Position numbers and translations under genes: made by a program. A stretch of 64,000 nucleotides of DNA, from positions 7,693-71,692 of the forward strand of contig JBBSWN010000010.1 in assembly GCA_038046265.1 (NCBI GenBank), given 5' to 3'. The notes below the pieces were generated by a model that saw only the letters and a list, made by a program, of their open reading frames with translations, had not been told where the DNA came from and made no database searches. The stretch is from Nanobdellota archaeon. Lineage in GTDB: Archaea; Nanobdellota; Nanobdellia; SCGC-AAA011-G17; JACPIM01. Below, piece after piece: positions 5,089 through 63,640 of the stretch; the first letter of the stretch is position 1; every line of letters starts with the position of its first letter.

Positions 5089-5958
5089 ATGAATAAAAAA
5101 GGGATGGAAATTACTTTTAATTGGATTTTTGTTATAATTGCTGGGAGTGTTTTATTGATGTTTTTCCTGTTTTTTGCGTGGAAACAGATAGGATTGTTTA
5201 ACAAATTAGGGATTAATGAGGTAGTTTCAAAATTGAACAATGAAATAGATTCTTTTGCTATAGGGGTTTCACTGAACAAGGTTGTTGAACTGCCTAAAGG
5301 TGTTGATATTAGTTTTAAATGCGGGGAGGTTGTTTTTAAAGGGGCAAAAAAAGACACCTTACATTTAATTTATGCTGAAGGGGATTTTAGAGAGAGATTT
5401 AATTTATGGACAAATGCATGGGTATTTCCTTTTAAAGTTGACAATTTATACTATACTACAAATTCTAATGGGAAGATGTTTATTATTGGAAATGAGAATT
5501 TTTTCTTTAATATACCTAATAAATTTCCAAAATCTAATAATTTAAACCAGGAAGTTGGAAAAAACGATGTTATAGTTGATTTTACAAATTCTAATTTACA
5601 AAGAAATTATAGAGAAAATAAGGTATTAGTAATAGACAGCTCAAGAAATATGATAACTTTTTTTCCTGAGAACAAAAAAGAGGAGTTTTATGGGGAGGAA
5701 ATGATTTATGGGGGTATATTTTCTAGTTATACAGAGTATTCCTGCCTAAGGAAAAAGGCTTTAGAAAGACTAAATGTAATTTCCGAGCTATATAAAAAGA
5801 AGGCTGGATTGCTTAAATTAAATTCAAAATGCAACTTTTTGTATAGTGAAATGGAAAAGACATTAGAGCTTTTTAAGAGAGAGCCATTAAAGTTTAAGAA
5901 TGTGTTAATTGAGCAGAATGACAATTTAAAAAGGAGCGGGTGTGCAAGTGTCTTTTAA
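5089..5958 (+). CDS. type IV pilin-like protein (class III signal peptide)
   Basis: MNKKG|MEITFNWIFVIIAGSVLLMFFLFF; a TATA-like tttatattat lies ~25 nt upstream. Confidence 0.45.
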   Translation: MNKKGMEITFNWIFVIIAGSVLLMFFLFFAWKQIGLFNKLGINEVVSKLNNEIDSFAIGVSLNKVVELPKGVDISFKCGEVVFKGAKKDTLHLIYAEGDFRERFNLWTNAWVFPFKVDNLYYTTNSNGKMFIIGNENFFFNIPNKFPKSNNLNQEVGKNDVIVDFTNSNLQRNYRENKVLVIDSSRNMITFFPENKKEEFYGEEMIYGGIFSSYTEYSCLRKKALERLNVISELYKKKAGLLKLNSKCNFLYSEMEKTLELFKREPLKFKNVLIEQNDNLKRSGCASVF

Positions 5959-6526
5959 AACCTTTTTAGGAAAAAGCTTTACCAAAAAGAAGAACAAAGG
6001 TTCTTATCAACTCCTGGGGAGGAGGGGGCAGGCTGAATTGTCAGAGACTCTGCTTGTTTTGCTAATTGTTGTGTTTTTAATTATAGCAGGGATATTTGTT
6101 TATTATTTGTTTTTTTACAGGAGTTTAGGGAGTATAGGGAGTGAGAAGACTGATTTTGAGAACTTGATATTATTATATACCTTAGGTCAGTCTCCTGAAT
6201 TAAAATGCGAGAATGAGGATTGTGTTGATGTTGTAAAGCTGTTTGCTTTTAAGGAATTAGTTAAAGAGAATAAAGGTTATTATGTTGAGAGGTTTGGGAA
6301 AAGAAGGATAATTATAGAGAGTGTTTACCCGAAATTAAATGAAAATATGCAAAAAACAGAGTGCATATTAGAAAAGTACCAACAAAGCAGTTTTCCGAAT
6401 AATTGTGGGTACATTATAGTTTATGATAATTTACAAAACAACAAAGGAGCATTAAGCGTAAGCCTGCCTGTTTCACTAAACTATGGAAATGAGTATAGAA
6501 TAGGGATGTTACGGGTGCAAGTATGA
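5942..6526 (+). CDS. pilin-like or N-terminally anchored protein (start uncertain; alternative TTG at 6038)
   Basis: ...RRG|QAELSETLLVLLIVVFLIIAG matches a class III signal. The called N-terminus, however, translates the dispersed intergenic motif at 5958-5988, and GGAGGAGGGGG precedes an in-frame TTG at 6038. Confidence 0.4.
   Translation: MQVSFKTFLGKSFTKKKNKGSYQLLGRRGQAELSETLLVLLIVVFLIIAGIFVYYLFFYRSLGSIGSEKTDFENLILLYTLGQSPELKCENEDCVDVVKLFAFKELVKENKGYYVERFGKRRIIIESVYPKLNENMQKTECILEKYQQSSFPNNCGYIIVYDNLQNNKGALSVSLPVSLNYGNEYRIGMLRVQV
5958..5988 (+). promoter_or_regulatory. dispersed motif copy (AACCTTTTTAGGAAAAAGCTTTACCAAAAAG)
   Basis: Member of the motif family described in findings. Confidence 0.35.
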
Positions 6527-9684: not shown

Positions 9685-10830
9685 ATGAAAAAAACTTTAA
9701 TTGTTATTTTTTTGATTATTTTACTGGGGTTTTTTTATTTAAAAGAAAGAGAGTTTAAAATAGAAACTATTGAAAGCATAGGGAAAAGCGAGAATTATTA
9801 TTTTGTATTTCCTTCTATAACAGAACTGCATAAAGATGATGTTTTTGAGTTTAATGTTGATAAAGTAGATAATTTAAGGGAGAAAAAGAAGTTTGACAAA
9901 AAACTAAGATCAAAAGTAATTGAATTGTTAAAAATGCCTGATTACGTTGTTTTAGAGCCAAGAGCTGACATTGTTAAAGATGAGGACAAGGGAAAGTATA
10001 TTGAAAGAAAAATAAGGATATACACTTCTTTTAACACATTATCACATGCTTATTTATTAATTCCAAAGGAGAAAAACAACAAAATAGTAATAGCAATGCA
10101 CCAGCATGGGGGGAATTATGAATATGGAAAAGAGGAAGTTGTTGGCAATTTAGGTGATGAAAATATGTTTTTTGGAAAAGAGTTGGCTGAAAGAGGATAT
10201 TTTGTTTTTGCAATGGATGCCCCTTTATTTGGGGAAAATAACTTGTTTTTTGAAAATTCTACTGGTGTAAAAAGAAATTCTGCTGAAATTGAGGAGCAAT
10301 TTGCAACACAAAGCCTGCTTTTATATGGATATACTCCTTTAGGTGCTATTTTACAGCAAGACATGACTGCCTTGAATTTTTTATTAAGTTTAGAGGGTTT
10401 TGACAAGGAAAATATTGGGTGTATTGGGCATTCTTTTGGGGGAGCAAGATGCATGTACTTGGCAGCAATGGATGAAAGAATAAAAGCTGTTGTTTTGTCT
10501 AATTCTGTTGCAAATTTCAGGAGAGATTATGACAAAAGCATATTACATACTTGGTTAACTTTACTGCCTGGAATAGCTAAATATACTGAGATTAATGGAG
10601 TTTTAGGGTTAATTGCACCAAGACCATTAATGATAGTTTACAGTGAGAATGATCCAATTAATCCAGAAAATGAGGTAAAAGAACAGATTTTGTCTATGGA
10701 AAATTTATATGAAAAGTTAGGCAGAAAAGAAGAATTTAAAAGTTTATATTTAAAAGGAAAAGCGCATGAATTTCCTCTAGAATATCACGAGCAAGCTTAT
10801 GAATTTTTTGACAAAAACCTAAAAAATTAA
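9685..10830 (+). CDS. membrane-anchored alpha/beta hydrolase paralog 3 (GHSFGG)
   Basis: N-terminal TM; motifs AMHQHGGNYEYGKEEVVGN, CIGHSFGGARCMYLAA, SENDPI, GKAHEFP are shared with the other three paralogs. Confidence 0.7.
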   Translation: MKKTLIVIFLIILLGFFYLKEREFKIETIESIGKSENYYFVFPSITELHKDDVFEFNVDKVDNLREKKKFDKKLRSKVIELLKMPDYVVLEPRADIVKDEDKGKYIERKIRIYTSFNTLSHAYLLIPKEKNNKIVIAMHQHGGNYEYGKEEVVGNLGDENMFFGKELAERGYFVFAMDAPLFGENNLFFENSTGVKRNSAEIEEQFATQSLLLYGYTPLGAILQQDMTALNFLLSLEGFDKENIGCIGHSFGGARCMYLAAMDERIKAVVLSNSVANFRRDYDKSILHTWLTLLPGIAKYTEINGVLGLIAPRPLMIVYSENDPINPENEVKEQILSMENLYEKLGRKEEFKSLYLKGKAHEFPLEYHEQAYEFFDKNLKN

Positions 10831-10885
10831 GTTTATAAAATACAGAAAGTTTATTTTTATAATGCCGCGATCGCATAACCTGGTA

Positions 10886-11002
10886 TAAGCTTTTAGAAAA
10901 AGCTTAAGCAAAAACTAAAGCAAAACTAAGAGTTTACAGAATTGCACTGGCCTTGAGATAAGCTTTTAAAAAAGCTTAAGCAAAAAATTAAGCAAAAAAA
11001 AC
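10886..11002 (+). repeat. two tandem ~73-bp units (TAAGCTTTTARAAAAGCTTAAGCAAAAA-TAAAGCAAAA...), degenerate copies of the dispersed motif
   Basis: Direct comparison of 10886-10930 with 10959-11002. Confidence 0.5.
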
Positions 11003-11084
11003 AAGATAGCCAGGCCTCACAAGGGCATCCCGGTTCAAAATAAGGATTGCATCCTTATCAACCCGCAAACTTAAATGAAAGTCC

Positions 11085-11126
11085 GGGTCGCGGCGTAATA
11101 TATTTACAGATAAGTTGTGGCGTAAG
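11085..11126 (+). repeat. GC-rich repeat pair R1 GGGTCGCGGCGTAATAT (11085-11101) and R2 TTGTGGCGTAA (11116-11126), upstream of the TA pair
   Basis: Exact copies recur at 11920-11936 and 11891-11901 downstream of the TA pair in mirrored order; the core GGCGTAAT occurs four times. Confidence 0.5.
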
Positions 11127-11196
11127 TTTAAATATTAGTTAGACTTAATTAGTAAAGTATTTAAATAAGTTAATCTTATTAGTAAGATACACTTAT

Positions 11197-11469
11197 TTGG
11201 AGGAAAAAATGGAAAATGTTGAAGTTACAAGCATAAGCTCACGAGGGCAGGTAGTTATACCACAATCAGTAAGAGAAAAGTTAAAGCTTCATGAAGGAGA
11301 AAAGTTTATAGTTATAGGAGAAGAAGATACTATAGTTTTAAAGAAACTGGAAATGCCTTCATTTAAGGGCTTTGATAAACTACTTAAAAAAACAAGGGAA
11401 TTTGCTAAAAATAAAGGAATTAAGCCTGAAGATGTAAGCGAGGCTGTAAAAAGAGCAAGATCTAAATGA
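11197..11469 (+). CDS. AbrB/SpoVT/MazE-type antitoxin
   Basis: SSRGQVVIPQSVREKLKLHEGEKFIV swapped-hairpin motif; 4-nt overlap with the downstream PIN gene. Confidence 0.6.
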   Translation: MEEKMENVEVTSISSRGQVVIPQSVREKLKLHEGEKFIVIGEEDTIVLKKLEMPSFKGFDKLLKKTREFAKNKGIKPEDVSEAVKRARSK

Positions 11470-11876
11470 TTAAAGTAGTTGTTGACACTAATGTGTTTAT
11501 ATCTGGTATATTTTGGGAAGGAAACTTTTGTTCGCAAATAATAGACTTATGGGGACTTGGGGAAATTACTATTGTCAGTTCATTGGATATAATTGAGGAA
11601 TTAGTAAAAACATTAAGAGATTTTAAAGTTGAAATGCCAGATGACATGATTGAAGAATGGCAAAATAAAATCATTGAAAATGCTGTAATTGTAGAACCTA
11701 AAGAAAGGCTTGATGTTGTCAAGGGTGACTCTAAAGACAATAAATTCTTTGAAGCTGCTTTAGCTGGGAAAGCGGAATATATTGTAAGTCAGGATAAAAA
11801 ACATATTTTAAGCATTAAAGAATACAAAGGAATAAAAACTATCTCGCCTGAAGATTTTTTAGAACTTATCAAATAA
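11466..11876 (+). CDS. PIN-domain (VapC-like) toxin
   Basis: N-terminal VVVDTNVFISG motif typical of PIN domains; acidic residues downstream; translationally coupled to the antitoxin. Confidence 0.6.
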   Translation: MIKVVVDTNVFISGIFWEGNFCSQIIDLWGLGEITIVSSLDIIEELVKTLRDFKVEMPDDMIEEWQNKIIENAVIVEPKERLDVVKGDSKDNKFFEAALAGKAEYIVSQDKKHILSIKEYKGIKTISPEDFLELIK

Positions 11877-11890
11877 ACTTAAGAAATACT

Positions 11891-11936
11891 TTGTGGCGTA
11901 ATAAATTACTTATCACCTCGGGTCGCGGCGTAATAT
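11891..11936 (+). repeat. second copies of R2 (11891-11901) and R1 (11920-11936)
   Basis: Exact matches to the 11085-11126 elements. Confidence 0.5.
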
Positions 11937-11980
11937 CATTTTTGACAAAATATAAAAATATTAAGTATTAGGTATGATTC

Positions 11981-13030
11981 ATGAAAATCGGCTTTGTTAA
12001 TTTGACACCACTTGTTTATGATGTGGAAACACCTCTTAGTTCTCCTTTAGGAGGGTCAGAGTCAGCAATGTGCTATTTGGCTCAGCATTTAAGCACTGCT
12101 GGACATGAAATAACACTTTTTAGAAAGAGCAATGGAGAATTTAATAAGTCAGGAGTTACTCATTTACCAATAAACAAAATTAAGGATGAATTACTAGATT
12201 TTTTGATTATACAGAATACACCATTTTCAGCACCAAAAATCAAAAAAATAATTAGCCGGAAAACGAATATGATTTTTTGGTCGCAGCATGCAGCTGATCA
12301 AAAAGCAGTTGAATCTTTAAAAAATAATGATGTTCTTAAGATTTTTGACAAAATAGTTTTAGTGAGTGAATGGCAAAAAAAGAATTACCTAGAGATGTTT
12401 GGAATAGAGGAAAATAAAATTGAGATAAAACGAAATGCTATTTCTCCTGCATTTGAAAATTTAAAAGGCATAAAAAAAGAATGGTCAATGGCGTATACAA
12501 GCACCCCTTTTAGAGGATTGAATTTACTGCCTGAAATTTTTGAGAAAGCCAGAAAAATAAGACCTGATGCAGCATTATCAGTTTTTTCCAGCATGAAAAT
12601 ATATCAAGCAAATATGCAAGCTGAAAAAGAATTTGAATGGCTTTATAACAAATGCCGAAATACACAGAGTATTGAATATGTGGGTGCTATATCTCAGAGT
12701 GAGCTTGCAAGCAAACTAGCTGAAATTGAAATTTTGGCATATCCCAATACTTTTGCTGAAACTTCCTGCATTTCTGTGATGGAAGCCATGGCTGCTGGGT
12801 GTCAGGTAGTTACAAGTAATTTAGGTGCGCTGCCTGAAACAACTGCAGGATTTGCAAGACTAGTTAATATAGAAGGAAAAGAAAGACAAGATTATATTGA
12901 AGACTTTGTCAAAGCATTGACAATAACAATAGATCAATCAAAAATCAGGAAGCAGGTTGATTTTGTTAATGAAAACTATATTTGGAAGAAAAGGGCAAAA
13001 GAATGGGAAGAGTTTTTATTAAAAATCTGA
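11981..13030 (+). CDS. glycosyltransferase, GT4-like (GT-B fold)
   Basis: C-terminal EAMAAGCQVVTSNLGALPE motif characteristic of GT1/GT4 enzymes. Confidence 0.55.
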   Translation: MKIGFVNLTPLVYDVETPLSSPLGGSESAMCYLAQHLSTAGHEITLFRKSNGEFNKSGVTHLPINKIKDELLDFLIIQNTPFSAPKIKKIISRKTNMIFWSQHAADQKAVESLKNNDVLKIFDKIVLVSEWQKKNYLEMFGIEENKIEIKRNAISPAFENLKGIKKEWSMAYTSTPFRGLNLLPEIFEKARKIRPDAALSVFSSMKIYQANMQAEKEFEWLYNKCRNTQSIEYVGAISQSELASKLAEIEILAYPNTFAETSCISVMEAMAAGCQVVTSNLGALPETTAGFARLVNIEGKERQDYIEDFVKALTITIDQSKIRKQVDFVNENYIWKKRAKEWEEFLLKI

Positions 13031-13067
13031 GAATAGATTTAAAAACATGTTTAAGTTGATTTATTAA

Positions 13068-13874
13068 ATGGTAAATGCCAAAATATTAGTTGGTTGTCCA
13101 ATATATGACAAATCAGAGTATTGTTTTGATGAGTTTTTAAAAGCTGTAAGGGCTTTTGATTATGATAATTTTGACATATTAATAATAGATAATTCAAGAG
13201 ACAAAGATTTTTACAACAGAAAGCTAAAAGATTTAAAAGATGTTACAGCAATTTATTTAAATTTAAAAGAGGAGAAAAACTTAAAGAGGTTAGCATTAAC
13301 AAGAAATGAGATTATTAATTATTTTTTAGGTAAAGATTATGAATATTTACTTATGATGGATTCTGATGTTATTGCCCCTCCTTATATAATAAAAGAACTA
13401 TTATTACAGGACAAGGATATAATTTCTGGGCTTTATTTTAATTACTTTGTTAAAAATGGGAAGAATATTTTACTGCCAGTAGCATGGAGAACTATTGAGG
13501 AAAGAGAATTTGAGATGCTTAAAAAGGCAAACAAAGTTCCTTATGGATGCAGTTCAAAAGAAGATATAAGAGTGCATTTAGATTCTGCAGAATATTCAAG
13601 CAACAGAGTTTTTGAAGTAATAATGCCATCTGCCGGGTGCATGCTTGTAAAAAGAACTGTTTTAGAAAAAGGAATTAGATATGGTGTTTTAAACAAAGAT
13701 GAGATAAGGAATGCGAAAAAATCAACTTCAGATGATGTTTACTTTATGAGGGAAGTTTTTAAAAATGTGTTTAAGGCTTATTGTCATACTGGAATTAAAT
13801 GCAAACATCTGTTACTAGGAAAATATAGAAAAGATGAGGAAAAAAATGAGATGTCACATCCATTATATAAATAA
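13068..13874 (+). CDS. glycosyltransferase, GT2-like
   Basis: N-terminal Rossmann-like region IIDNSRD ... LLMMDSDV (DxD-like). Confidence 0.4.
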   Translation: MVNAKILVGCPIYDKSEYCFDEFLKAVRAFDYDNFDILIIDNSRDKDFYNRKLKDLKDVTAIYLNLKEEKNLKRLALTRNEIINYFLGKDYEYLLMMDSDVIAPPYIIKELLLQDKDIISGLYFNYFVKNGKNILLPVAWRTIEEREFEMLKKANKVPYGCSSKEDIRVHLDSAEYSSNRVFEVIMPSAGCMLVKRTVLEKGIRYGVLNKDEIRNAKKSTSDDVYFMREVFKNVFKAYCHTGIKCKHLLLGKYRKDEEKNEMSHPLYK

Positions 13875-13878
13875 TTTT

Positions 13879-15270
13879 TTATTCTGGTTCTACTTTTCTT
13901 GTTTTTCCTGAAATAACATATCTTATTGTGCCTGAAAATTCCTCGAACATAGCTTTATAAGGTTTTAATGAGCCTCTTCTTATTTGTCTTAAGAAATATT
14001 TAGGGCTTAAGTAATAATTAATATATGTATTTCTGATTTTTTTCCTTACAAAATCATAAGTCAAGGAAGTGTTAATATATTTGTTATACAAATTTTGATC
14101 GTAAAGAGACCAGTTTTCCTGCAAGATGCCTTTGTCTTTGTGCATTTTCCATAATTCAGTACCAACAATAGGGGTTATTGAGAAAATCCACATATAGTCT
14201 GGCATAATTTCATATATCATGTCAATTGTTTCTTGAATACTTTCTTTTGTTTCTTCTGGGGAGCCAAACATAAAAGATGCTTTTGTAGAGATTCCGTGTT
14301 TATGGCATAAATCAAATGCTTTTCTTATCTTGTTTTTTGCTTCAATTTGGTTATCTCCAAGGCCTTTGTCAAGATTCTGCAATATTTTTGCAGAGCCTGA
14401 TTCAACACCAAAATTAACCATATGACAGCCAGAGTCGGCCATTAATTTTGCATTATCTTCTCTTAATGTGTCAACTCTGCTTAAACAACACCAAGACATA
14501 TCAAGGTCTTTCAAGCCTTTACAAATTTTAATTAATCTTTCCTGCTTTAATGGAAAAACATCATCATAAAACAAGATTTCTTTTCTTTTGTATTTTTCCT
14601 TTAGTTCCTGGATTTCACCCAAGACATGTTCAGCACTTCTAAACCTTACTATTCTGTCCCAGGTGATTTTTGATGCACAATAAATGCAGTTTGCAAAACA
14701 GCCTCTTGAGGAAAAAACAGTTGCTGCAGGCTTTAGTCCTTCCCATGTAAAATGTATGTCATATTTATCCATGTCAACAAGGTGCCTAGCTGGATAAGGC
14801 AGAATGTCCAAGTTTTCAATAAAGGGCCTGTCTTGATTATGTATTATTTTATTATTTTCCTTATAAGAAATTCCCAAGATGTTTTTAAGTGGTTTTTCTT
14901 CTGCAATTTCAACTATTGTAAGGTCTGCTTCTTTTTTAGCTACTATGTCTGCATCAATTTCTTTTAAAGCCATTTCCGGAAGAGCTGAAGCATGACTGCC
15001 ACCAATCATTATTTTTGCATTTGGATTATAGGACCTTATGTCTTTTATTATTTCCTTTGTTTTTACAACATTTGGTGTAGAGAAACTTAAACCAATTAAT
15101 TTTGAGTCAAAGAAATTTTTTAGAGGTGTTTTATCAACTGACATGTCAAGGACTTTAACTTTGAAATTATTTTTTTCTAGATTTGCTGCGAGCTGGAGAA
15201 TTCCCAATGGTTCTGGAATGTTTACATAAGTAGAACTTTCAACATTTATCAGACTAATTTCAGAGCTCAT
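13879..15270 (-). CDS. B12-binding-domain radical SAM enzyme
   Basis: N-terminal B12-binding-like region (KIMIGGSHASALPE) followed by the FSSRGCFANCIYC CxxxCxxC motif. Confidence 0.6.
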   Translation of the reverse strand: MSSEISLINVESSTYVNIPEPLGILQLAANLEKNNFKVKVLDMSVDKTPLKNFFDSKLIGLSFSTPNVVKTKEIIKDIRSYNPNAKIMIGGSHASALPEMALKEIDADIVAKKEADLTIVEIAEEKPLKNILGISYKENNKIIHNQDRPFIENLDILPYPARHLVDMDKYDIHFTWEGLKPAATVFSSRGCFANCIYCASKITWDRIVRFRSAEHVLGEIQELKEKYKRKEILFYDDVFPLKQERLIKICKGLKDLDMSWCCLSRVDTLREDNAKLMADSGCHMVNFGVESGSAKILQNLDKGLGDNQIEAKNKIRKAFDLCHKHGISTKASFMFGSPEETKESIQETIDMIYEIMPDYMWIFSITPIVGTELWKMHKDKGILQENWSLYDQNLYNKYINTSLTYDFVRKKIRNTYINYYLSPKYFLRQIRRGSLKPYKAMFEEFSGTIRYVISGKTRKVEPE

Positions 15271-15302
15271 TTTTACTTAATCTTTTTTTGAATATATAAA
15301 GC

Positions 15303-15878
15303 TTATTTTTTTGCTATTCCTAATAAATCCAAGATAAATTTGGTAGAAGCTTTTATTATTTCTTCTTCTGTTTTGCCTTCAACAATAATGCATTCTTCTT
15401 GCTTGAAAACCTTAGATTCTTCCCCAAGCCTTAAAACAATTATAGATTCTGTTGTTGTTACGTCTGAGCAAGTTTTTACAGGGATGTTTTCTTTTTTATA
15501 TGTTAGGGCTGTTTTTACAGGCAGGTTAAACAAAAACTGGTTTCCAATTATTTTTGCTATTTCTGCAGCTGCAATCACGCTTTCAGATGTTAATTCCGGA
15601 GTCAGGGTTATAAAAACTTCTTCTCTTATTACTCTTTCTTTGATGTTTTCCTCTATCTCTATATAATCTAGAGTTCTTGGGTCATATCTTACTGATATGT
15701 AATGGGGATTTTGGTCGTTTTTAAGAAAGACTTCTATGTCATATACAACAGGAGCTGTTTGATAAATTTTATAGCCATTATACTTAAAAACATTGTCTCT
15801 GCTAGAATTATATAAGTAATAAGAACCTAATAACAAAAGAAGTATTACAAGAGATGCTAAAACCTTCTTTTTTGCCAT
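15303..15878 (-). CDS. small N-terminally anchored protein, paralog A (LPVKTC motif)
   Basis: N-terminal TM; shares LP[VI]KTC.D...[IV]IV...C...G..E.I...LL with the next gene. Confidence 0.45.
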   Translation of the reverse strand: MAKKKVLASLVILLLLLGSYYLYNSSRDNVFKYNGYKIYQTAPVVYDIEVFLKNDQNPHYISVRYDPRTLDYIEIEENIKERVIREEVFITLTPELTSESVIAAAEIAKIIGNQFLFNLPVKTALTYKKENIPVKTCSDVTTTESIIVLRLGEESKVFKQEECIIVEGKTEEEIIKASTKFILDLLGIAKK

Positions 15879-15880
15879 TT

Positions 15881-16432
15881 TTATGCTGTGAGAAGAGATA
15901 TTATCAGTTGATCGATGAATTTTATTATTTCTGTTTCATGGCCTTTAATTTCAAGGCAATTATTAATGTATTTTATCTCTTTATTAATTGCTTTTTTTAC
16001 AATTACGACTTTATTTAAATCTTTCGCATCTTGGCATGTTTTAATTGGGAGTTTAGAACATTTTTCACTGTCTTCAAAACAAGAGTTTACTGATTTCGGA
16101 GTTAAAATTTGAGTTAACATGTTTAACTCCTGGTAAATTAAGTTATTAGATTCATTTTGGTCAGAAGAAAAGTAGATTTTTTCAGCTGAATTTAATTGTT
16201 TTGGATTAATTATTTTTTGTTCTTCCAATGATTCAGGATCAAATGACAGGGAAATTGGGTTATTATTTACATAAACAACCCATTTGTTGTTTATGCTGCT
16301 GAATTCAAGGCCTTTGTATTTTTTTATATCTGGGTTGTTTTCTTCTGGAAGAGAAACAAAACCAGCAATACTAGTAATCATTAGAAAAGATATGAACAAG
16401 GCTAAAATCAGTTTCTTTTTCTTAGTGTCCAT
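15881..16432 (-). CDS. small N-terminally anchored protein, paralog B (LPIKTC motif)
   Basis: N-terminal TM; the C-terminal half is alignable to 15303-15878. Confidence 0.45.
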   Translation of the reverse strand: MDTKKKKLILALFISFLMITSIAGFVSLPEENNPDIKKYKGLEFSSINNKWVVYVNNNPISLSFDPESLEEQKIINPKQLNSAEKIYFSSDQNESNNLIYQELNMLTQILTPKSVNSCFEDSEKCSKLPIKTCQDAKDLNKVVIVKKAINKEIKYINNCLEIKGHETEIIKFIDQLIISLLTA

Positions 16433-16470
16433 AAAATTCTTTTTAGATTATTATTTATAAACCTTTTTGA

Positions 16471-16502
16471 ACCCTTTTTAGAAAAAGCGTTAACGGAAAA
16501 AA
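16471..16502 (+). promoter_or_regulatory. dispersed motif copy (ACCCTTTTTAGAAAAAGCGTTAACGGAAAAAA)
   Basis: Motif family; a partial copy lies 10 bp upstream. Confidence 0.35.
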
Positions 16503-16578
16503 CTTATTTTTTATAACTCCTAAAAAGAATTCATGAAAATAATAAAATTTAGAATAAATAAAAAGAAATAAGAAAAAA

Positions 16579-18450
16579 TTAAAATTTAAATTCACTAGAC
16601 AAATCTTTACTAGTGAACCTTATTTCGCCTTTTTTCTTTTTGCCCTTTCCTTTTAATAGGAAGTAAGCTGCAACCACTACTGCCAAAATCAATAAGACTA
16701 CTACGATAACACCAGCTTTTCCTGGTTTTTCTGCTTCTGCAGGTGCTGATGGTTGAGTAGGTGTTTCTTCTACTTTTGGCGGTATTTTTACTGGCTTGAT
16801 CATTACTTTAGCTTCTTCATCTTGTACTGATGTTAACTTTACTACAACATCATTGTCGCCATCGCCATCTAAATCTACTTCTCTTGACTCACCAACATTT
16901 AAGGTTATGTCATTTGGTGTAGATTCAAGCCTTATTGTAGCACTTGTTGCTGTTACTTTAAGGAAAGTCAAAGTGTGTTGTGTTTCTCCATCTAATGTAA
17001 AGGTTGAAGATTCTCCTTGAAGACCAGAAACTTCTCCTTCTGGAGCTGATCCATCAACTGATCTGCTTAAATCAACTTCAGCTACTTTTTGTTCTTCTGC
17101 TTCTTCTTCAACTGAAACTCCTTCATCTCCTTCATAGAATGCTGTGAATTCTTTTTCAGAAGTTGTTGAGAACTGTACTGAGTCTTCAACACTACATTTT
17201 ATCTTGTATTTTCCTGCTTGACCTGTTTCTGTTGCCTTAAATTCAGGTTCAAATTTGAAACCACCTGACTGTGATTTTGTTATTGTTGCACCATTTGGTT
17301 TTGTAAGAGTTACTGTGAATATTACTTTTGATGTGTCATTTGTTTCACATGTTGCAGTAATTGTGTTTTCAACAGCTATTCTTGACTTACTAAGTGAAAG
17401 AACAGATCCTGGGGCTGTACCATCTAAAGTTATGTTGAAACCTCTTCCATTGTTTGATACATTTACTGTGTTGCCTGCTGAGTCATTTGCAACTATCATG
17501 AAGATAATTGATCTACCCTCTGCAAGATCAGTTAAGCTGTCAACCATTCTTACTTCACCTGATCCATTAGCATCTTTTCCAGCAAATCTCAATGAACCGT
17601 TTAATATAGTGTCGTTATTGCTGGTGAAAGGCGAGTGCTGATTATTCATTGTCATGTTGTTTGGATTTGTTGATGACAGTGCACCAGTATCAGCTGCTAA
17701 AGGACTTCCATTGAACAACCAATATATTCTTGCTGAATATAAATGAGGTTCATCTACTGAAATTGAGACTTTTAGATTAGTTCCATTTCTTAAGTAAGCG
17801 TTATTACCAGTTGTTCCATTTAAGTCAACTAATACAACTGTGTTTGTACCATCAGATACATTCAAGGAACTTATTGAGAATACAGGCCTTGCTTTGTCAA
17901 TGGTTATTGTTCTGTTAGCTGAGAAGTTTTTTCTGTGTTGCAGAGTGTAAGATGCATTAGATGTTGCATTTAAACCTGCTTGACAGGCAACGGTGTAGTT
18001 TCCGTCAGCTATAAGAAGATTTCCTGTGTTAGCTCCATTAGCATCATATGTTACTGTACTAGCATTAAATGCCTTGAATCTAATTCTTAGCAAATTAAGA
18101 GTGCCATTTTGCTCGAGAACATGTGTGTAGTTAAAAGGTGATGCTGAAGTGTTTGTTACATTCATTGAAATGTTGTTTGAGCCAGATGCAAATCCATGGA
18201 AATTATGGAATAAGGATATGTTAGCAATTCTCTGGCTAGAAGTAAATACTACTGCACTACAAGTAATATTCAGGTTTCTACCTGTTGTAATATTATAATT
18301 GCTGATGTTAACACCGCCAGATTGTATCTGCGCTACAGTAACTTCTATAGCTCCTTCTGTTGTTGGCGCTACAGCATTAACAAAAACAACGTATAAACTC
18401 AAAAGAACTAATAAATTTATAAGATAAAAGATTAACCTCTTATTATTCAT
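16579..18450 (-). CDS. large sequon-rich surface (glyco)protein with C-terminal TM anchor and Lys-rich tail
   Basis: N-terminal signal/TM; dozens of N-x-S/T sequons (NIS, NIT, NAS, NGT...); Thr/Pro/Glu-rich linker; C-terminus PGKAGVIVVVLLILAVVVAAYFLLKGKGKKKKGE. Confidence 0.55.
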   Translation of the reverse strand: MNNKRLIFYLINLLVLLSLYVVFVNAVAPTTEGAIEVTVAQIQSGGVNISNYNITTGRNLNITCSAVVFTSSQRIANISLFHNFHGFASGSNNISMNVTNTSASPFNYTHVLEQNGTLNLLRIRFKAFNASTVTYDANGANTGNLLIADGNYTVACQAGLNATSNASYTLQHRKNFSANRTITIDKARPVFSISSLNVSDGTNTVVLVDLNGTTGNNAYLRNGTNLKVSISVDEPHLYSARIYWLFNGSPLAADTGALSSTNPNNMTMNNQHSPFTSNNDTILNGSLRFAGKDANGSGEVRMVDSLTDLAEGRSIIFMIVANDSAGNTVNVSNNGRGFNITLDGTAPGSVLSLSKSRIAVENTITATCETNDTSKVIFTVTLTKPNGATITKSQSGGFKFEPEFKATETGQAGKYKIKCSVEDSVQFSTTSEKEFTAFYEGDEGVSVEEEAEEQKVAEVDLSRSVDGSAPEGEVSGLQGESSTFTLDGETQHTLTFLKVTATSATIRLESTPNDITLNVGESREVDLDGDGDNDVVVKLTSVQDEEAKVMIKPVKIPPKVEETPTQPSAPAEAEKPGKAGVIVVVLLILAVVVAAYFLLKGKGKKKKGEIRFTSKDLSSEFKF

Positions 18451-18756
18451 TTATTGCCACCTCTCAATATTTGTTATTTATTCTCTTTTTTTATTTTTTT
18501 TGAATTCTTTAAATTGATATTTGTATATTTAAAGCTATAAACATAAAAGAACACATAGCTTATATATAAAGGTTTTGGTGATTTATATATTATATTCTTA
18601 AAATCTGTTTTTAATGCCTTTTCTGGCAAATTTACTGCATAATAAATAACTAAAATAAAAAGCAACACAAACTTTAATAATTGGAAAATAGTACAAACCT
18701 TTGTAAATTTGTTATAATTATTAGTTAATGGTTAGTCATGTTTAAACAGTGCAAAG

Positions 18757-19908
18757 ATGAAAAAAGGATATATTTTCTGGGGGTTTTTTATTATTTTGTT
18801 GTTAATATTTTCGTTTTTTTATAATTTTGAGGATAATCCCAAAAATAGGGAATTTAATAAACCTGAAAAAGCCTTTATAAACAGTTTTTTTGCACTTAGA
18901 TATAAATACGAAAGTATAAAACCTGATTTTGATGTTAGCAGCATAAAAAATACAAAAGACAAGGAAAAATTTGACAAATCTTTGAAAAAAAAGCTTTTAG
19001 AATTATTGAATATGCCTTTTGATGAAGTTCCTGTTGATAAGCTTTTAAATACTTATACCACCATAGACAAAGGGACTTATACTGAAAATGCGCTTACTTT
19101 ACATACTTCTGAATATTCTTTGGCATCAGCTTATCTTCTTATACCAAAGAATTTGAAAGAAAAGAATCCAGCTATAATAGCAATGCACCAGCATGGTGAA
19201 AATTATGAAAATGGAAAAGAGGAAGTTGTCGGCAATAAAGGAGAACCAGATTTAGCTTATGGAAAAGAGCTAGTTGAAAGAGGGTATGTTGTTTTTGCAA
19301 TGGATGCTCCTTTATTTGGCGAGAGACTTAATTTTGGGGGGGGTTCTGGAGCTGTACAGGAAGTTAATGCTGCACAAGACTTATTTTTATTTGGACACCC
19401 GCCTTTAGGAGTTATAGTTCAAGAAGATTTAGTAAGTTTAGATTATTTATATTCTTTAGATTTTATTGACAAGGATAATATAGGGTGTATTGGGCATTCT
19501 TTTGGTGGTGTAAGGTGCATGTACTTGGCAGCTTTAGATGAAAGAATTAAAGTAACTGTTTTATCAAGTAGCGTAGCTAATATTAAAAAAGAACTAAGCA
19601 GCGGGGCAACTCATACTTGGTTTTCAATTTTACCTGGAATAGCAAGAGTTACTGAAACTAGCGGCATTTTAGCTTTAATTTCTCCAAGACCTTTGATGAT
19701 AGTTCACACTGATAATGATCCAATTTTTCCATCTGATGAAACCCAACAAAACATAGATTCTGTTTATGGACTTTATGGTTTATTGGAAAAAAGAGAGAAT
19801 TTTGATTATTTTTTCATAAAAAATGAGAAGCATACATTTCCGAAAGAAGCTCATAACTTAGTTTATGAGTTTATGGACAAGCACCTTAAAAAACAGCTTT
19901 ACACATAA
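18757..19908 (+). CDS. membrane-anchored alpha/beta hydrolase paralog 4 (GHSFGG)
   Basis: IAMHQHGENYENGKEEVVGN, CIGHSFGGVRCMYLAA, HTDNDPIF and an N-terminal TM. Confidence 0.7.
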   Translation: MKKGYIFWGFFIILLLIFSFFYNFEDNPKNREFNKPEKAFINSFFALRYKYESIKPDFDVSSIKNTKDKEKFDKSLKKKLLELLNMPFDEVPVDKLLNTYTTIDKGTYTENALTLHTSEYSLASAYLLIPKNLKEKNPAIIAMHQHGENYENGKEEVVGNKGEPDLAYGKELVERGYVVFAMDAPLFGERLNFGGGSGAVQEVNAAQDLFLFGHPPLGVIVQEDLVSLDYLYSLDFIDKDNIGCIGHSFGGVRCMYLAALDERIKVTVLSSSVANIKKELSSGATHTWFSILPGIARVTETSGILALISPRPLMIVHTDNDPIFPSDETQQNIDSVYGLYGLLEKRENFDYFFIKNEKHTFPKEAHNLVYEFMDKHLKKQLYT

Positions 19909-20073
19909 TTAATAAAACAATAACTTTATAAGGTAAATTATTAGGTATATTTTATGGAAATGACAAGAGTTGATTGTATTCATTTGTAATCTTTTTTCTA
20001 GTTCAAACTATAAACTTTTAAGTGTTATAAAGCAAATTTTTATTAAGGATTTAATTTCTTTTATTTCTAGAAT

Positions 20074-20189
20074 GGCGGTCGTAGTATACTGGCTTATTAC
20101 AGCTGGCTGTGGCCCGGCTAAAGGGAGTTCGATAAAATCTTTTTGGGAAAAAGCTTTACCAAAAAATTACGAAAATCTCCCCGATCGCC
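20074..20189 (+). tRNA. tRNA-His (GUG) with encoded G-1, C73 and a ~42-nt intron in the T-loop
   Basis: Hand fold: G-1 at 20074; acceptor GCGGTCG/CGATCGC (one G-U pair); D-arm with A14, G18-G19, A21; anticodon stem GCTGG/CCGGC; loop CUGUGGC (U33, GUG, G37); T-stem GGGAG/CTCCC; exons TTCGA+AT rebuild a TTCGAAT T-loop after removing 20133-20174; discriminator C. No CCA encoded. Confidence 0.5.
20139..20166 (+). promoter_or_regulatory. dispersed motif copy inside the tRNA-His intron (CTTTTTGGGAAAAAGCTTTACCAAAAAA)
   Basis: Motif family. Confidence 0.35.
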
Positions 20190-20203
20190 CTAAGCTTTTC
20201 TTA

Positions 20204-20235
20204 AACCTTTTTAGGAAAAAGCTTTACCAAAAAAG
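20204..20235 (+). promoter_or_regulatory. dispersed motif copy upstream of hisS
   Basis: AACCTTTTTAGGAAAAAGCTTTACCAAAAAAG. Confidence 0.35.
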
Positions 20236-20301
20236 AGAAAACCTTGGAAAAGAAAACATTTTTAGGAAAAGTTTGAGTTACTATAATATAAGAGGTGGAA
20301 A

Positions 20302-21567
20302 ATGAAATTAGAAAGAGCCAAGGGTGTCAGGGATTTTCTTCAAAGCGAGAAATTAAAGAGAAACCAGATTATGAATGTAATTAGAGAGGGTTTTGAGTTA
20401 TATGGTTTTTTTGAAATAGAGACACCCATATTAGAAAGATATGATCTTTTATCTGCCAAGTATGCCGGGGGAGCTGAAATATTAAAAGAAACTTTCAAGT
20501 TAAAAGACCAGGGAAACAGGGAATTAGCCTTAAGGTATGATTTAACAGTGCCTTTAGCAAGAGTTATAGGGATGAATCCCCAATTAAAAATGCCATTTAG
20601 AAGATATCAGATTGGGAAAGTTTTTAGGGACGGGCCAATTGGAACAGGAAGAGTGAGGGAGTTTTTTCAGTGCGATGCTGATATTATAGGGTGCGAGAGT
20701 GTTTTAGCTGAAGTTGAGCTTTTAAATTTGGCTAATTATGTTTATACAAAATTAGGATTTAAGTTTAAACTTAAAGTCAACGACAGGAAAATTTTAAATG
20801 CTATTTTAAAGAGTGCTGGGATATTGGAAAATGATTTTGAAAATGTTATTTTAAGCATAGATAAATTGTATAAAATTGGTGTTGAGGGAGTGAGCAAAGA
20901 ACTTCTTGAGAAAAATGTAGATAAAAATGCTACTGAGAAAATAATTAAAATAATCTCTATAAAAGGAAACAACAAGGAAAAATTAAAAGAGATTGAGAAA
21001 TTTATTCCAGAAGAAAGTCTGAAAGAAATAAATGAATTAATTAAGTATAATGTCAAGAATATTGAATTGGATTTTTCACTTGCAAGGGGATTCTCTTATT
21101 ACACTGGAATAATTTTTGAAATTGTTTTAAAGGACAACAAGTTAATCTGCTCTGTAGGAAGCGGGGGGAGATATGACAGTATGATAGGCAGTTTACTAGA
21201 AAATAAGAGAAGTTATCCTGCTGTTGGAATTTCTTTTGGGCTGGACAGAATTTATGATGCTCTTGAAGATAAAGAAGTCAAGAAAAGCTTGACACAGGTT
21301 TTTATTATATCTATTAATGAAGAAAAAAAAGCTATTGAATTGGGTGAAAATTTAAGAAGAAACAATTTTAAAACAGAATTAGATATAAAGAAAAGATCAA
21401 TTTCCTCTAGCTTAGATTATGCTTCTAAAATGGAAATTCCATTTGTTGTTTTTTTAGGCAAGGAAGAAATGAAAAAAAACAAGGTAAAATTAAGGAACAT
21501 GAAGAACGGGAAAGAGAAATTAATGAGTGTAAATCAGTTGTTTAGCACTTTAAAGGGGTTGAAGTAG
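20302..21567 (+). CDS. hisS: histidyl-tRNA synthetase
   Basis: Class II aaRS core with a C-terminal anticodon-binding-like domain; overall resemblance to HisRS; lies next to the tRNA-His gene. Confidence 0.6.
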   Translation: MKLERAKGVRDFLQSEKLKRNQIMNVIREGFELYGFFEIETPILERYDLLSAKYAGGAEILKETFKLKDQGNRELALRYDLTVPLARVIGMNPQLKMPFRRYQIGKVFRDGPIGTGRVREFFQCDADIIGCESVLAEVELLNLANYVYTKLGFKFKLKVNDRKILNAILKSAGILENDFENVILSIDKLYKIGVEGVSKELLEKNVDKNATEKIIKIISIKGNNKEKLKEIEKFIPEESLKEINELIKYNVKNIELDFSLARGFSYYTGIIFEIVLKDNKLICSVGSGGRYDSMIGSLLENKRSYPAVGISFGLDRIYDALEDKEVKKSLTQVFIISINEEKKAIELGENLRRNNFKTELDIKKRSISSSLDYASKMEIPFVVFLGKEEMKKNKVKLRNMKNGKEKLMSVNQLFSTLKGLK

Positions 21568-31254: not shown

Positions 31255-31518
31255 ATGTAGGCTAGGCAGCAGGCTAGTCCTCTGCGATTTCCAAACGGAC
31301 TTCATGGGAAGCTGAAAGCCCAGATAAGAACAAATTAGGTTAATAGTCTTGGTTTGTACGATGAGGCTTTGTCCTAGTGTGTTATTTTATATGAGAACCA
31401 GGTCAGGATGGGAACATAGCAGCCTTAATCATTTAAAGTAAAGTCATTAGGGGTTCAGAGCTAAGGAAGGATCAAGGTAGCTATTAATTTATTTTTTTCT
31501 GAACTGGGAAGCCTACTT
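31255..31518 (+). ncRNA. signal recognition particle RNA (7S/SRP RNA)
   Basis: GC-rich island in an AT-rich spacer; helix-8 signature ACCAGGUCAGGAUG-GGAA-CAUAGCAGCC (compare E. coli 4.5S CCAGGUCAGGUCC-GGAA-GGAAGCAGCC); 5' GUAGGCU pairs with 3' AGCCUAC; ends approximate. Confidence 0.55.
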
Positions 31519-32721: not shown

Positions 32722-32940
32722 AATGTTATTTATAAATCTTTCTAATTTTAACTACTTAAGAGTAATATAAAAATGAAAGAATTTCAAAAATATCGGAAAG
32801 ATTACGTAAAAATTAAACTTGCTTATTTTTCATTATAAGGCTTATAAACGTCTTTAAATGCATTTAAAGCGGGGAAAAGTATTTAAACTTTGGAACTTTT
32901 TTTTGAATAGAAATTACTAAATTTTGACTAATCTTTTATA

Positions 32941-32960
32941 AAAAGCTTAACCAAAAGGCT
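32941..32960 (+). promoter_or_regulatory. partial dispersed-motif copy (AAAAAGCTTAACCAAAAGG) just upstream of gyrB
   Basis: Matches the right half of the motif. Confidence 0.25.
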
Positions 32961-32962
32961 GA

Positions 32963-36444
<3,482 letters not shown>

Positions 36445-36445
<1 letters not shown>

Positions 36446-36492
36446 AAAGCTTTTTAGAAAAAAGCTTTAGCAAAAAACGAAGCAAAAAAACG
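36445..36492 (+). promoter_or_regulatory. dispersed motif copy (AAAAGCTTTTTAGAAAAAAGCTTTAGCAAAAAACGAAGCAAAAAAACG)
   Basis: Motif family, between gyrB and the next ORF. Confidence 0.3.
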
Positions 36493-36495
36493 AAA

Positions 36496-36759
36496 ATGCA
36501 AGGAAAACGACGAGATACATATCAGGCGAATTTGTTTGGGCTTGTTTCAGAAACTAGTACAGCTATTAAAGGAAGAGATTTAGAGAAAGCTAGAAATAAT
36601 CTAGAAATTCTTTTTCGAGAATTTGAATTAATGCCCCATGAAGGATTTATGGGTGGAAAATCTATGTTTGCTGTAATTTATTTTATTTATAGAGGTCTTA
36701 AAAAAGAATATGATAAACTAATAACCAATGATGAAGAATTTTTGGTAGGGTTAGCATGA
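36496..36759 (+). CDS. small hypothetical protein between gyrB and gyrA
   Basis: 87 aa; its stop overlaps the gyrA start (ATGA). Confidence 0.3.
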   Translation: MQGKRRDTYQANLFGLVSETSTAIKGRDLEKARNNLEILFREFELMPHEGFMGGKSMFAVIYFIYRGLKKEYDKLITNDEEFLVGLA

Positions 36760-42903: not shown

Positions 42904-42967
42904 AACCCTTTTAAGAAAAGCGTTCACGGAAAAAGAACCCTTTTAAGAAAAAGCTTCACCAAAAATG
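42904..42967 (+). promoter_or_regulatory. two tandem dispersed-motif copies (AACCCTTTTAAGAAAAGCGTTCACGGAAAAAG / AACCCTTTTAAGAAAAAGCTTCACCAAAAATG)
   Basis: Motif family; lies in the divergent region between aIF2-gamma and the four-gene operon. Confidence 0.4.
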
Positions 42968-63595: not shown

Positions 63596-63640
63596 AACCT
63601 TTTGGGAAAAAGCTTCACCAAAAATGCTTTACGGAAACCC
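63596..63640 (+). promoter_or_regulatory. dispersed motif copy (AACCTTTTGGGAAAAAGCTTCACCAAAAATGCTTTACGGAAACCCG)
   Basis: Motif family. Confidence 0.35.

Follow-up and report, generated by a model that had tools for sequence, protein, structure and literature searches.

The closest described counterpart of the gene considered here is the pre-tRNA-Cys(GCA) of ARMAN-2 (Ca. Micrarchaeum acidiphilum), which has a 13-nt intron of the hBH type at position 59/60 that is cut in vitro by an epsilon2 splicing endonuclease, and the tRNA-Pro of the same organism has two T-loop introns (Fujishima et al. 2011, PMC3239211). A survey of DPANN archaea by Kaneta et al., which included a Woesearchaeote, showed that splicing endonucleases (EndAs) with an L3 loop go with more tRNA disruption; for many DPANN an EndA of the alpha4 type with such a loop, not epsilon2, is suggested, and predicted DPANN tRNA sets are incomplete, which points to disrupted genes that have gone undetected (PMC5829648). 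A further point of reference is provided by the Thermoproteales, for which multiple-intron tRNAs and large-scale intron transposition are recounted (Sugahara 2008; Fujishima 2010; as summarized in PMC4033280 and PMC4090602).

The DNA analysed, here called the window, is a stretch of 64,000 nt. At 20074-20189 of its forward strand is a tRNA-His(GTG) gene, 113 nt upstream of hisS, whose T-loop is split by 42 nt. Comparison with relatives and modelling of the fold indicate that it is very probably a functional gene, with an intron at T-loop position 59/60 that a splicing endonuclease would remove. Its parts, and hisS, are as follows.

20074..20133, + strand: tRNA-His exon 1, comprising G-1, the acceptor 5' strand, D arm, anticodon arm, T-stem 5' strand and T-loop nucleotides 54-59
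Landmarks within exon 1, + strand: G-1 at 20074; GTG at 20108-20110; GGGAG at 20123-20127; TTCGAT at 20128-20133
20134..20175, + strand: tRNA-His intron of 42 nt at position 59/60, placed by RNAfold, a BHB scan and the consensus over seven variants
20176..20189, + strand: tRNA-His exon 2, comprising T60, CTCCC (T-stem 3' strand), CGATCGC (acceptor 3' strand) and discriminator C73
20302..21567, + strand: hisS, histidyl-tRNA synthetase (HisRS) of 421 aa, from Pfam and homologues

The anatomy of the gene can be read directly from the letters. G-1 (20074) lies opposite C73 (20189) and the anticodon GUG is set in the loop CTGTGGC, as befits tRNA-His; the acceptor stem, GCGGTCG/CGATCGC, has a single G4:U69 pair and is followed by TA before a D arm with A14, G18G19 and A21; the anticodon arm, GCTGG-CTGTGGC-CCGGC, is followed by TAAA before the T stem, and CCA is not encoded. 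The departure from the ordinary is in the T stem, GGGAG/CTCCC, whose strands are 49 nt apart instead of 7. With such a gap the gene escapes standard detection: ARAGORN, which models introns in the anticodon loop only, reports no tRNA in the whole 64 kb unspliced and has no match at the intact locus even with its intron options, while Rfam gives no tRNA at its gathering threshold or at E<=10 in 10800-20300, and none at E<=5 in the whole window. Once 20133-20174 is deleted, or equally 20134-20175, ARAGORN calls tRNA-His(gtg), and removal of the insert likewise restores a canonical cloverleaf in seven relatives. In the public record the gene is overlain by a protein gene, an ORF of 111 aa at 19970-20305 without a Pfam match. 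The sequence-only reading with which this work began had named the tRNA-His hallmarks (G-1:C73, one G-U in a 7-bp acceptor stem, A14/G18G19/A21 and CTGTGGC), the position directly upstream of hisS and the masking of the gene by a spurious ORF, and had proposed ARAGORN as a check; the hallmarks read as it described, Pfam and homologues put hisS where it was said to be, the ORF is indeed there, and ARAGORN was silent on the intact locus and positive once the insert was gone. An altogether different type of intron, of the self-splicing group I, was rejected. Group I ribozyme cores exceed 200 nt and their usual site in tRNA is the anticodon loop; this insert is only 42 nt, is in the T-loop and has no Rfam match.

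Loci of relatives were obtained by exact look-up of HisRS homologues and of a 31-nt word from the 5' exon in JGI metagenomes, the latter yielding two loci; a search of genome contigs by HisRS alignment, in which the matches listed were all at <=51% identity and many were bacterial, informs synteny across DPANN. The window's hisS (20302-21567) is found verbatim in a Hainich groundwater metagenome, on a contig of 84.9 kb, the closest named relatives of its HisRS are Candidatus Woesearchaeota, and further genes of the window (an S-layer-like protein, DnaK/GrpE and an intein-bearing gyrase) are consistent with DPANN, so that, judged from its genes, the host is a Woesearchaeota (DPANN) archaeon. 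tRNA-His lies immediately upstream of hisS in many DPANN and in some other archaeal genomes.

Eight distinct sequences (the window, L097, L003, L004, L005, L013, L006 and L096) share not only this arrangement but also an insert at one and the same T-loop site. Pairwise identity among them is 95-100% for the tRNA exons, 66-86% for the first 1200 nt of hisS and 25-98% for the inserts, whose lengths are 15 nt (L096), 36, 39, 42 and 51 nt; the one difference in the acceptor stem, G4:U69 versus G4:C69, keeps the pairing. Selection on the exons is here a matter of observation, and frozen exons beside free-running insert interiors argue for a functional intron-containing gene rather than a pseudogene. 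More distant loci illustrate the other forms the gene can take: L011/L012, with HisRS 57% identical, have an ordinary intron-less tRNA-His before hisS, and in L009/L100 tRNA-His has a 12-nt intron at the canonical 37/38 position with a clean BHB. When all fetched loci were screened by T arm and acceptor for more T-loop introns, nothing came up beyond the tRNA-His set, some GC-rich false positives and a case from a Micrarchaeota MAG (L023, JAZDHP010000053.1), in which a tRNA-His at 2264-2396, again upstream of hisS, has a 60-nt T-loop insert with a weaker core helix, TTCA/GGAA (3/4 pairs). It is an independent occurrence, within DPANN, of a T-loop intron in tRNA-His.

How would such an insert be recognized and removed? 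The minimum free energy (MFE) fold of 20074-20190 is a cloverleaf in which the T stem is continued by a UUCG/CGAA helix and a 3-nt bulge (RNAfold; z = -2.5). The last six nucleotides of the intron are CGAA (20170-20173), which pairs with TTCG (20128-20131), and AA; the latter are the first two of the bulge, AAU (20174-20176), that abuts the 3' strand of the T stem. Over seven variants RNAalifold retained just nine pairs, those of the T stem and of the 4-bp TTCG/CGAA helix, together with the 3-nt bulge, and a compensatory change is present in this same core, the T-loop intron of a tRNA-Ser in the window (see below) having TTCA/TGAA and the bulge AGU. The 5' splice site is less regular, with a 1-nt bulge and a weak 3-bp UAA/UUA helix in the window's MFE fold, or alternatively a 3x1 internal loop, and with an open loop in L006 and L096. 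The strict hBHBh' motif, two helix-flanked 3-nt bulges exactly 4 bp apart, was not found at the tRNA-His intron, which does have the AAU bulge on the 3' side, a helix of 4 bp and an outer one of 5 bp, with an inner helix that is not contiguous. Since the 5' site is without a clean 3-nt bulge the intron is assigned to the relaxed hBH/BHL class, whose bulge, 4-bp helix and outer helix it has.

Introns at 37/38 are cut after the second nucleotide of the bulge, and the first four nucleotides of the loop pair with intron positions -6 to -3. Because the placement of AAU and of TTCG/CGAA matches this rule, the cuts are predicted between 20133 and 20134 and between 20175 and 20176, i.e. at 59/60. A scan for BHB geometry (an outer helix, 4 bp, and bulges each made of two exon/intron nucleotides plus one) yielded only one solution whose outer helix has 5 bp; in it exon 1 ends at 20133 and the intron at 20175. 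The alternative of 58/59, with the T-loop TTCGAAT, would be of the same length and would also give a legal tRNA but needs a cut after the first bulge nucleotide. In the intron-less orthologue, L011/L012, the T-loop upstream of hisS is TTCGATT, identical to that of the predicted product, and the modelled junctions, taken with this orthologue, favour 59/60 (20134-20175) over 58/59. The sequence-only reading was right that the T arm closes on removal of 42 nt and that a relaxed BHB-type substrate is involved, the junctions folding as an hBH of T stem, TTCG/CGAA and 3-nt bulge, and it was led astray as to the site and loop, which it gave as 58/59 and TTCGAAT where structure and L011 give 59/60 and TTCGATT. 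A T5 run inside the intron (20140-20144) could be an archaeal termination signal, which counts against the reading as a spliced intron.

On the scheme that we consider best fitting, the T stem GGGAG/CTCCC of the precursor would be lengthened by pairing of UUCG, T-loop nucleotides 54-57, with CGAA, leaving an AAU bulge between the 4-bp helix and the 3' strand of the T stem; this would be the geometry of 37/38 introns moved to the T arm. Being a relaxed hBH, it would presumably call for a splicing endonuclease of broad specificity (Pfam gave no tRNA_int_endo domain in the 20 ORFs of EndA-like size in the window). Cleavage after U59 and before U60, followed by ligation of the RtcB type, would join GGGAGUUCGAU to UCUCCCCGAUCGCC, the predicted exon-exon junction then reading ...GGGAGUUCGAU followed by UCUCCC..., and would yield a 74-nt tRNA-His with the T-loop UUCGAUU, a genome-encoded G-1 paired with C73 and CCA presumably added post-transcriptionally. 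The rest of the intron would be a hairpin free to evolve, occupied in the window by a copy of an A/T-tract repeat.

The intron shares with that of ARMAN-2 tRNA-Cys its 59/60 T-loop position, its relaxed hBH type and a DPANN host, and with its 15 nt the L096 version also comes close in size to the 13 nt of ARMAN-2; it differs in being in tRNA-His of Woesearchaeota and in having, in the window, 42 nt with a dispersed repeat in its distal part. Like canonical 37/38 BHB introns it has a stem of 5 bp, pairs loop nucleotides 1-4 with intron positions -6 to -3 in a helix of 4 bp and has its 3' site in a 3-nt bulge; unlike them it is in the T arm and its 5' bulge is relaxed. The expectation from the sequence-only reading, that this is an intron at a non-canonical site of the kind known in archaeal lineages including DPANN, is thus borne out by the T-loop site, the Woesearchaeota host and the ARMAN-2 precedent (PMC3239211). 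The type itself is already documented there, and tRNA-His adds another example of it.

The repeat occupying the distal part of the intron is not confined to it. With <=3 mismatches allowed, the motif GGAAAAAGCTTTACCAAAAAA matches the window six times where 0.04 would be expected, always on the + strand, and there are several looser copies; one of the six is at 20146-20166, within the insert, in accord with the earlier claim that the intron carries a copy. At the locus there are two copies.

20139..20166, + strand: motif copy CTTTTTGGGAAAAAGCTTTACCAAAAAA, forming the distal intron hairpin TTTTTGG/CCAAAAA of tRNA-His
20206..20235, + strand: second motif copy, in the tRNA-His/hisS spacer

The TTTTTGG/CCAAAAA arms had been put forward as the intron helix; they do pair, as the distal hairpin, but the helix at the splice sites is TTCG/CGAA. 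L097 and L006 keep a hairpin by paired changes, AACTTTTG/CAAAAGTT and GCTTTTTGC/GCAAAAAG. L004 and L096 have splice-site cores identical to the window's with no motif in the intron, L004 having an unrelated hairpin and L096 its mere 15 nt, and the motif hairpin is for that reason considered dispensable. The spacer copy is part of a stretch of about 85 nt that is missing in L003, L005, L006 and L097. Outside tRNA genes there are copies, all on the + strand, at 5960-5989, 32938-32956, 36451-36490, 42905-42966 and 63598-63625; two of them directly follow stop codons (those of ORF 5089-5958 and of gyrB) and the remainder precede + strand genes in divergent intergenic regions. Around these non-tRNA copies no convincing BHB motif was found, the scan being very noisy in A/T-rich DNA. 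The notion of the motif as a general promoter was discarded given its inconsistent distances to start codons, its poor match to TATA and the location of all window copies on one strand. The gyrB gene (32969-36445, + strand) is interrupted by an intein, in which Pfam recognizes Intein_splicing and, as homing endonuclease of the LAGLIDADG kind, LAGLIDADG_3; an ORF of 87 aa (36496-36759) occupies the gyrB-gyrA gap. The SRP RNA at 31257-31516 (+ strand) has as its best Rfam model the bacterial large SRP (74.6 bits), not an archaeal one.

The window holds a second hidden tRNA gene, and here the motif recurs.

10864..11095, + strand: tRNA-Ser(UGA) with three introns, unseen by ARAGORN and Rfam when unspliced
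About 10886-10940, + strand: tRNA-Ser D-loop intron, carrying the dispersed motif
10958-11007, + strand: tRNA-Ser anticodon-loop intron, a strict BHB with CTTG/CAAG, carrying the dispersed motif
11040-11081, + strand: tRNA-Ser T-loop 59/60 intron, with the core TTCA/TGAA

The gene has the acceptor stem GCCGCGA/TCGCGGC, a discriminator G and a long variable arm, its anticodon is UGA (Ser) since the strict BHB fixes the anticodon-loop junctions, and ARAGORN calls tRNA-Ser once the three inserts are removed. The BHB scan found no strict BHB for the D-loop intron, whose junctions are approximate. Sharing of modules between introns is evident from direct alignment: the D-loop and anticodon-loop introns are identical at 38/40 positions, the D-loop intron and the T-loop intron of L013 tRNA-His at 37/39, and the hairpin of the tRNA-Ser T-loop intron is similar to the L004 tRNA-His intron, with all of these alignments scoring above every one of 300 shuffles. 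Highly similar introns thus occupy different tRNA species and different positions, and to judge from the alignments this resembles the intron transposition of Thermoproteales, where too there are multiple introns per tRNA (up to three here, in tRNA-Ser) and near-identical introns across tRNAs and positions. Unlike the Thermoproteales case the host is a DPANN archaeon and not a Crenarchaeote, what the introns share is a low-complexity element of A/T tracts that intergenic spacers have too, and this element is limited to the distal intron while the splice core is tRNA-specific.

Could the tRNA-His locus nevertheless be a pseudogene, a mobile short repeat having inserted in its T-loop with a working tRNA-His elsewhere? 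In favour, a single copy of a repeat also found in intergenic DNA makes up most of the insert, the extra copy just downstream was inserted in the window's lineage only, and neither ARAGORN nor Rfam detects the gene. Yet a dead gene would not be expected to keep exons at 95-100% where hisS DNA has drifted to 66-86%, nor an invariant site, TTCG/CGAA helix and 3-nt bulge while all else in the insert is replaced or reduced to 15 nt; moreover the tRNA-Ser of the window is arranged alike, and synteny with hisS is as in the intron-less orthologue. With exons and splice core conserved from lineage to lineage, a pseudogene is very unlikely. Extremely unlikely, and a shade more so, is a tRNA-like mimic in the hisS leader that would bind HisRS for autoregulation instead of decoding. 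Its appeal comes from the adjacency of tRNA-His and hisS, which many DPANN genomes and some of other archaea have conserved, but the spliced sequence has every normal tRNA-His feature and is called as such, the orthologous loci are ordinary intron-less tRNA-His genes, and mimicry has no need of a complete, perfectly conserved cloverleaf plus splice core. The two roles are in any event compatible with each other.

A proposal of another kind leaves splicing in place and has the intron kept partly as a carrier, the motif within it serving hisS, for instance as internal promoter or as a site of regulation. We regard it as improbable, despite a suggestive pattern: motif-bearing introns (L003, L097, L005/L013, L006) go with a tRNA that abuts hisS, across spacers of 22-25 nt that hold a Shine-Dalgarno sequence and have no space for a promoter, the motif-free introns (L004, L096) go with longer spacers and TATA-like boxes, and the motif opens A-rich and continues with CTTTA, loosely like BRE/TATA. 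The correlation, however, comes from few, non-independent lineages and co-transcription of tRNA and hisS accounts equally well for the short spacers. Furthermore at TATA positions 5-6 the motif reads C/G, in contrast to this lineage's clear TTTAAATA boxes, the distance from a copy to the next start codon downstream varies from 22 to 290 nt, the motif is present in two introns of tRNA-Ser, whose downstream gene owns TTTAAATA boxes, and the copy in the L096 spacer is on the opposite strand. A spliced 59/60 intron in a functional tRNA-His gene is the reading preferred here.

Upstream of tRNA-His there is a further conserved element.

19924-19931, + strand: TATA-like box CTTTATAA, with the mini-ORF starting 22 nt downstream
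19954..19989, + strand: mini-ORF MEMTRVDCIHL*, leaderless by position, with its His codon at 19981-19983
19992..20015, + strand: T6 run (19992-19997) and conserved block CTAGTTCAAACTATAAAC, after the mini-ORF

The stretch CA[A/C]GAGTTG[A/G]TTnn[A/T]TTCAT is conserved upstream of tRNA-His in close relatives and in more distant loci. Besides the window, the loci compared were L003, L004, L005, L006, L009, L011, L013, L021, L024, L031, L040, L096 and L097, with L021 and L031 being MAGs labelled Methanosarcinales. In 13/13 it is inside an ATG-initiated ORF, of 8-19 codons in 12/13; for L031 the furthest in-frame ATG gives 34 codons and an ATG placed as in the others gives 10. Length variants preserve the frame, the end is ...[V/A][D/G]x[I/F]H with an invariant His codon, which L021 and L031 double, and with the stop 0-2 codons later, and an oligo-T run and second conserved block come downstream. 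Since the ATGs are 22-30 nt past a TATA-like box, mostly TTTAAATA, the mini-ORF would be leaderless, and since in L004, L005 and L006 a promoter belonging to the tRNA alone would not fit, a shared transcript of mini-ORF, tRNA-His and hisS seems likely. Neither conserved RNA structure, alternative hairpins nor C/D box motifs were found in the mini-ORF region, and an interpretation of the upstream element as a C/D-box sRNA or structured RNA was dropped, both the box motifs and a conserved structure being missing. Full-text literature searches found no description of the element. Two observations concern its surroundings. In L009 (2052-3000) and L100 an ORF of about 850 nt with a faint LAGLIDADG match lies between mini-ORF and tRNA-His; and in two Woesearchaeota MAGs the roughly 2 kb before hisS hold a pair of tRNA-His genes (1706-1777 and 2392-2463 in L024; 201-273 and 2383-2455 in L040), the mini-ORF preceding only the hisS-proximal copy.

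The hisL leader of E. coli is a ribosome-mediated leader-peptide attenuator, and in mycobacteria leaderless poly-Cys short ORFs are ribosome-mediated attenuators (bioRxiv 10.1101/834739). With these the mini-ORF has in common a short ORF, the cognate codon near its end, a U-run and genes of the same amino-acid system downstream, and with the mycobacterial ORFs its leaderless nature. It departs from both in its archaeal host, its one or two His codons, its having no alternative hairpins and in the genes that follow, a tRNA and its synthetase. The mini-ORF may be a His-responsive leader, which is an attractive idea. The most expansive proposal would have a one-promoter His unit of mini-ORF (8-19 aa), oligo-T, intron-bearing tRNA-His and hisS, in which stalling at the His codon(s) controls read-through, together with an A/T-tract repeat that is an active mini-element colonizing both intergenic spacers and tRNA introns, the latter at whatever position. 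Taken as a whole it is speculative and rather unlikely. If true, Archaea would have a leader-peptide attenuator, with a tRNA gene under its control; the arrangement of mini-ORF, tRNA-His and hisS is a candidate case of archaeal amino-acid-responsive regulation that lends itself to testing.

Both tRNA genes of the 64-kb window are invisible to ARAGORN and Rfam, with one of them overwritten by a bogus 111-aa ORF, and those DPANN genomes that are seemingly short of tRNAs (PMC5829648) may hide them behind T-loop or multiple introns. For intron evolution, the one locus followed across relatives keeps its splice core unchanged while the distal part has been swapped, has grown (51 nt) or has nearly been lost (15 nt), and recurrence of a 40-nt module in other tRNAs and at other positions extends to Woesearchaeota the picture of intron mobility drawn for Thermoproteales.
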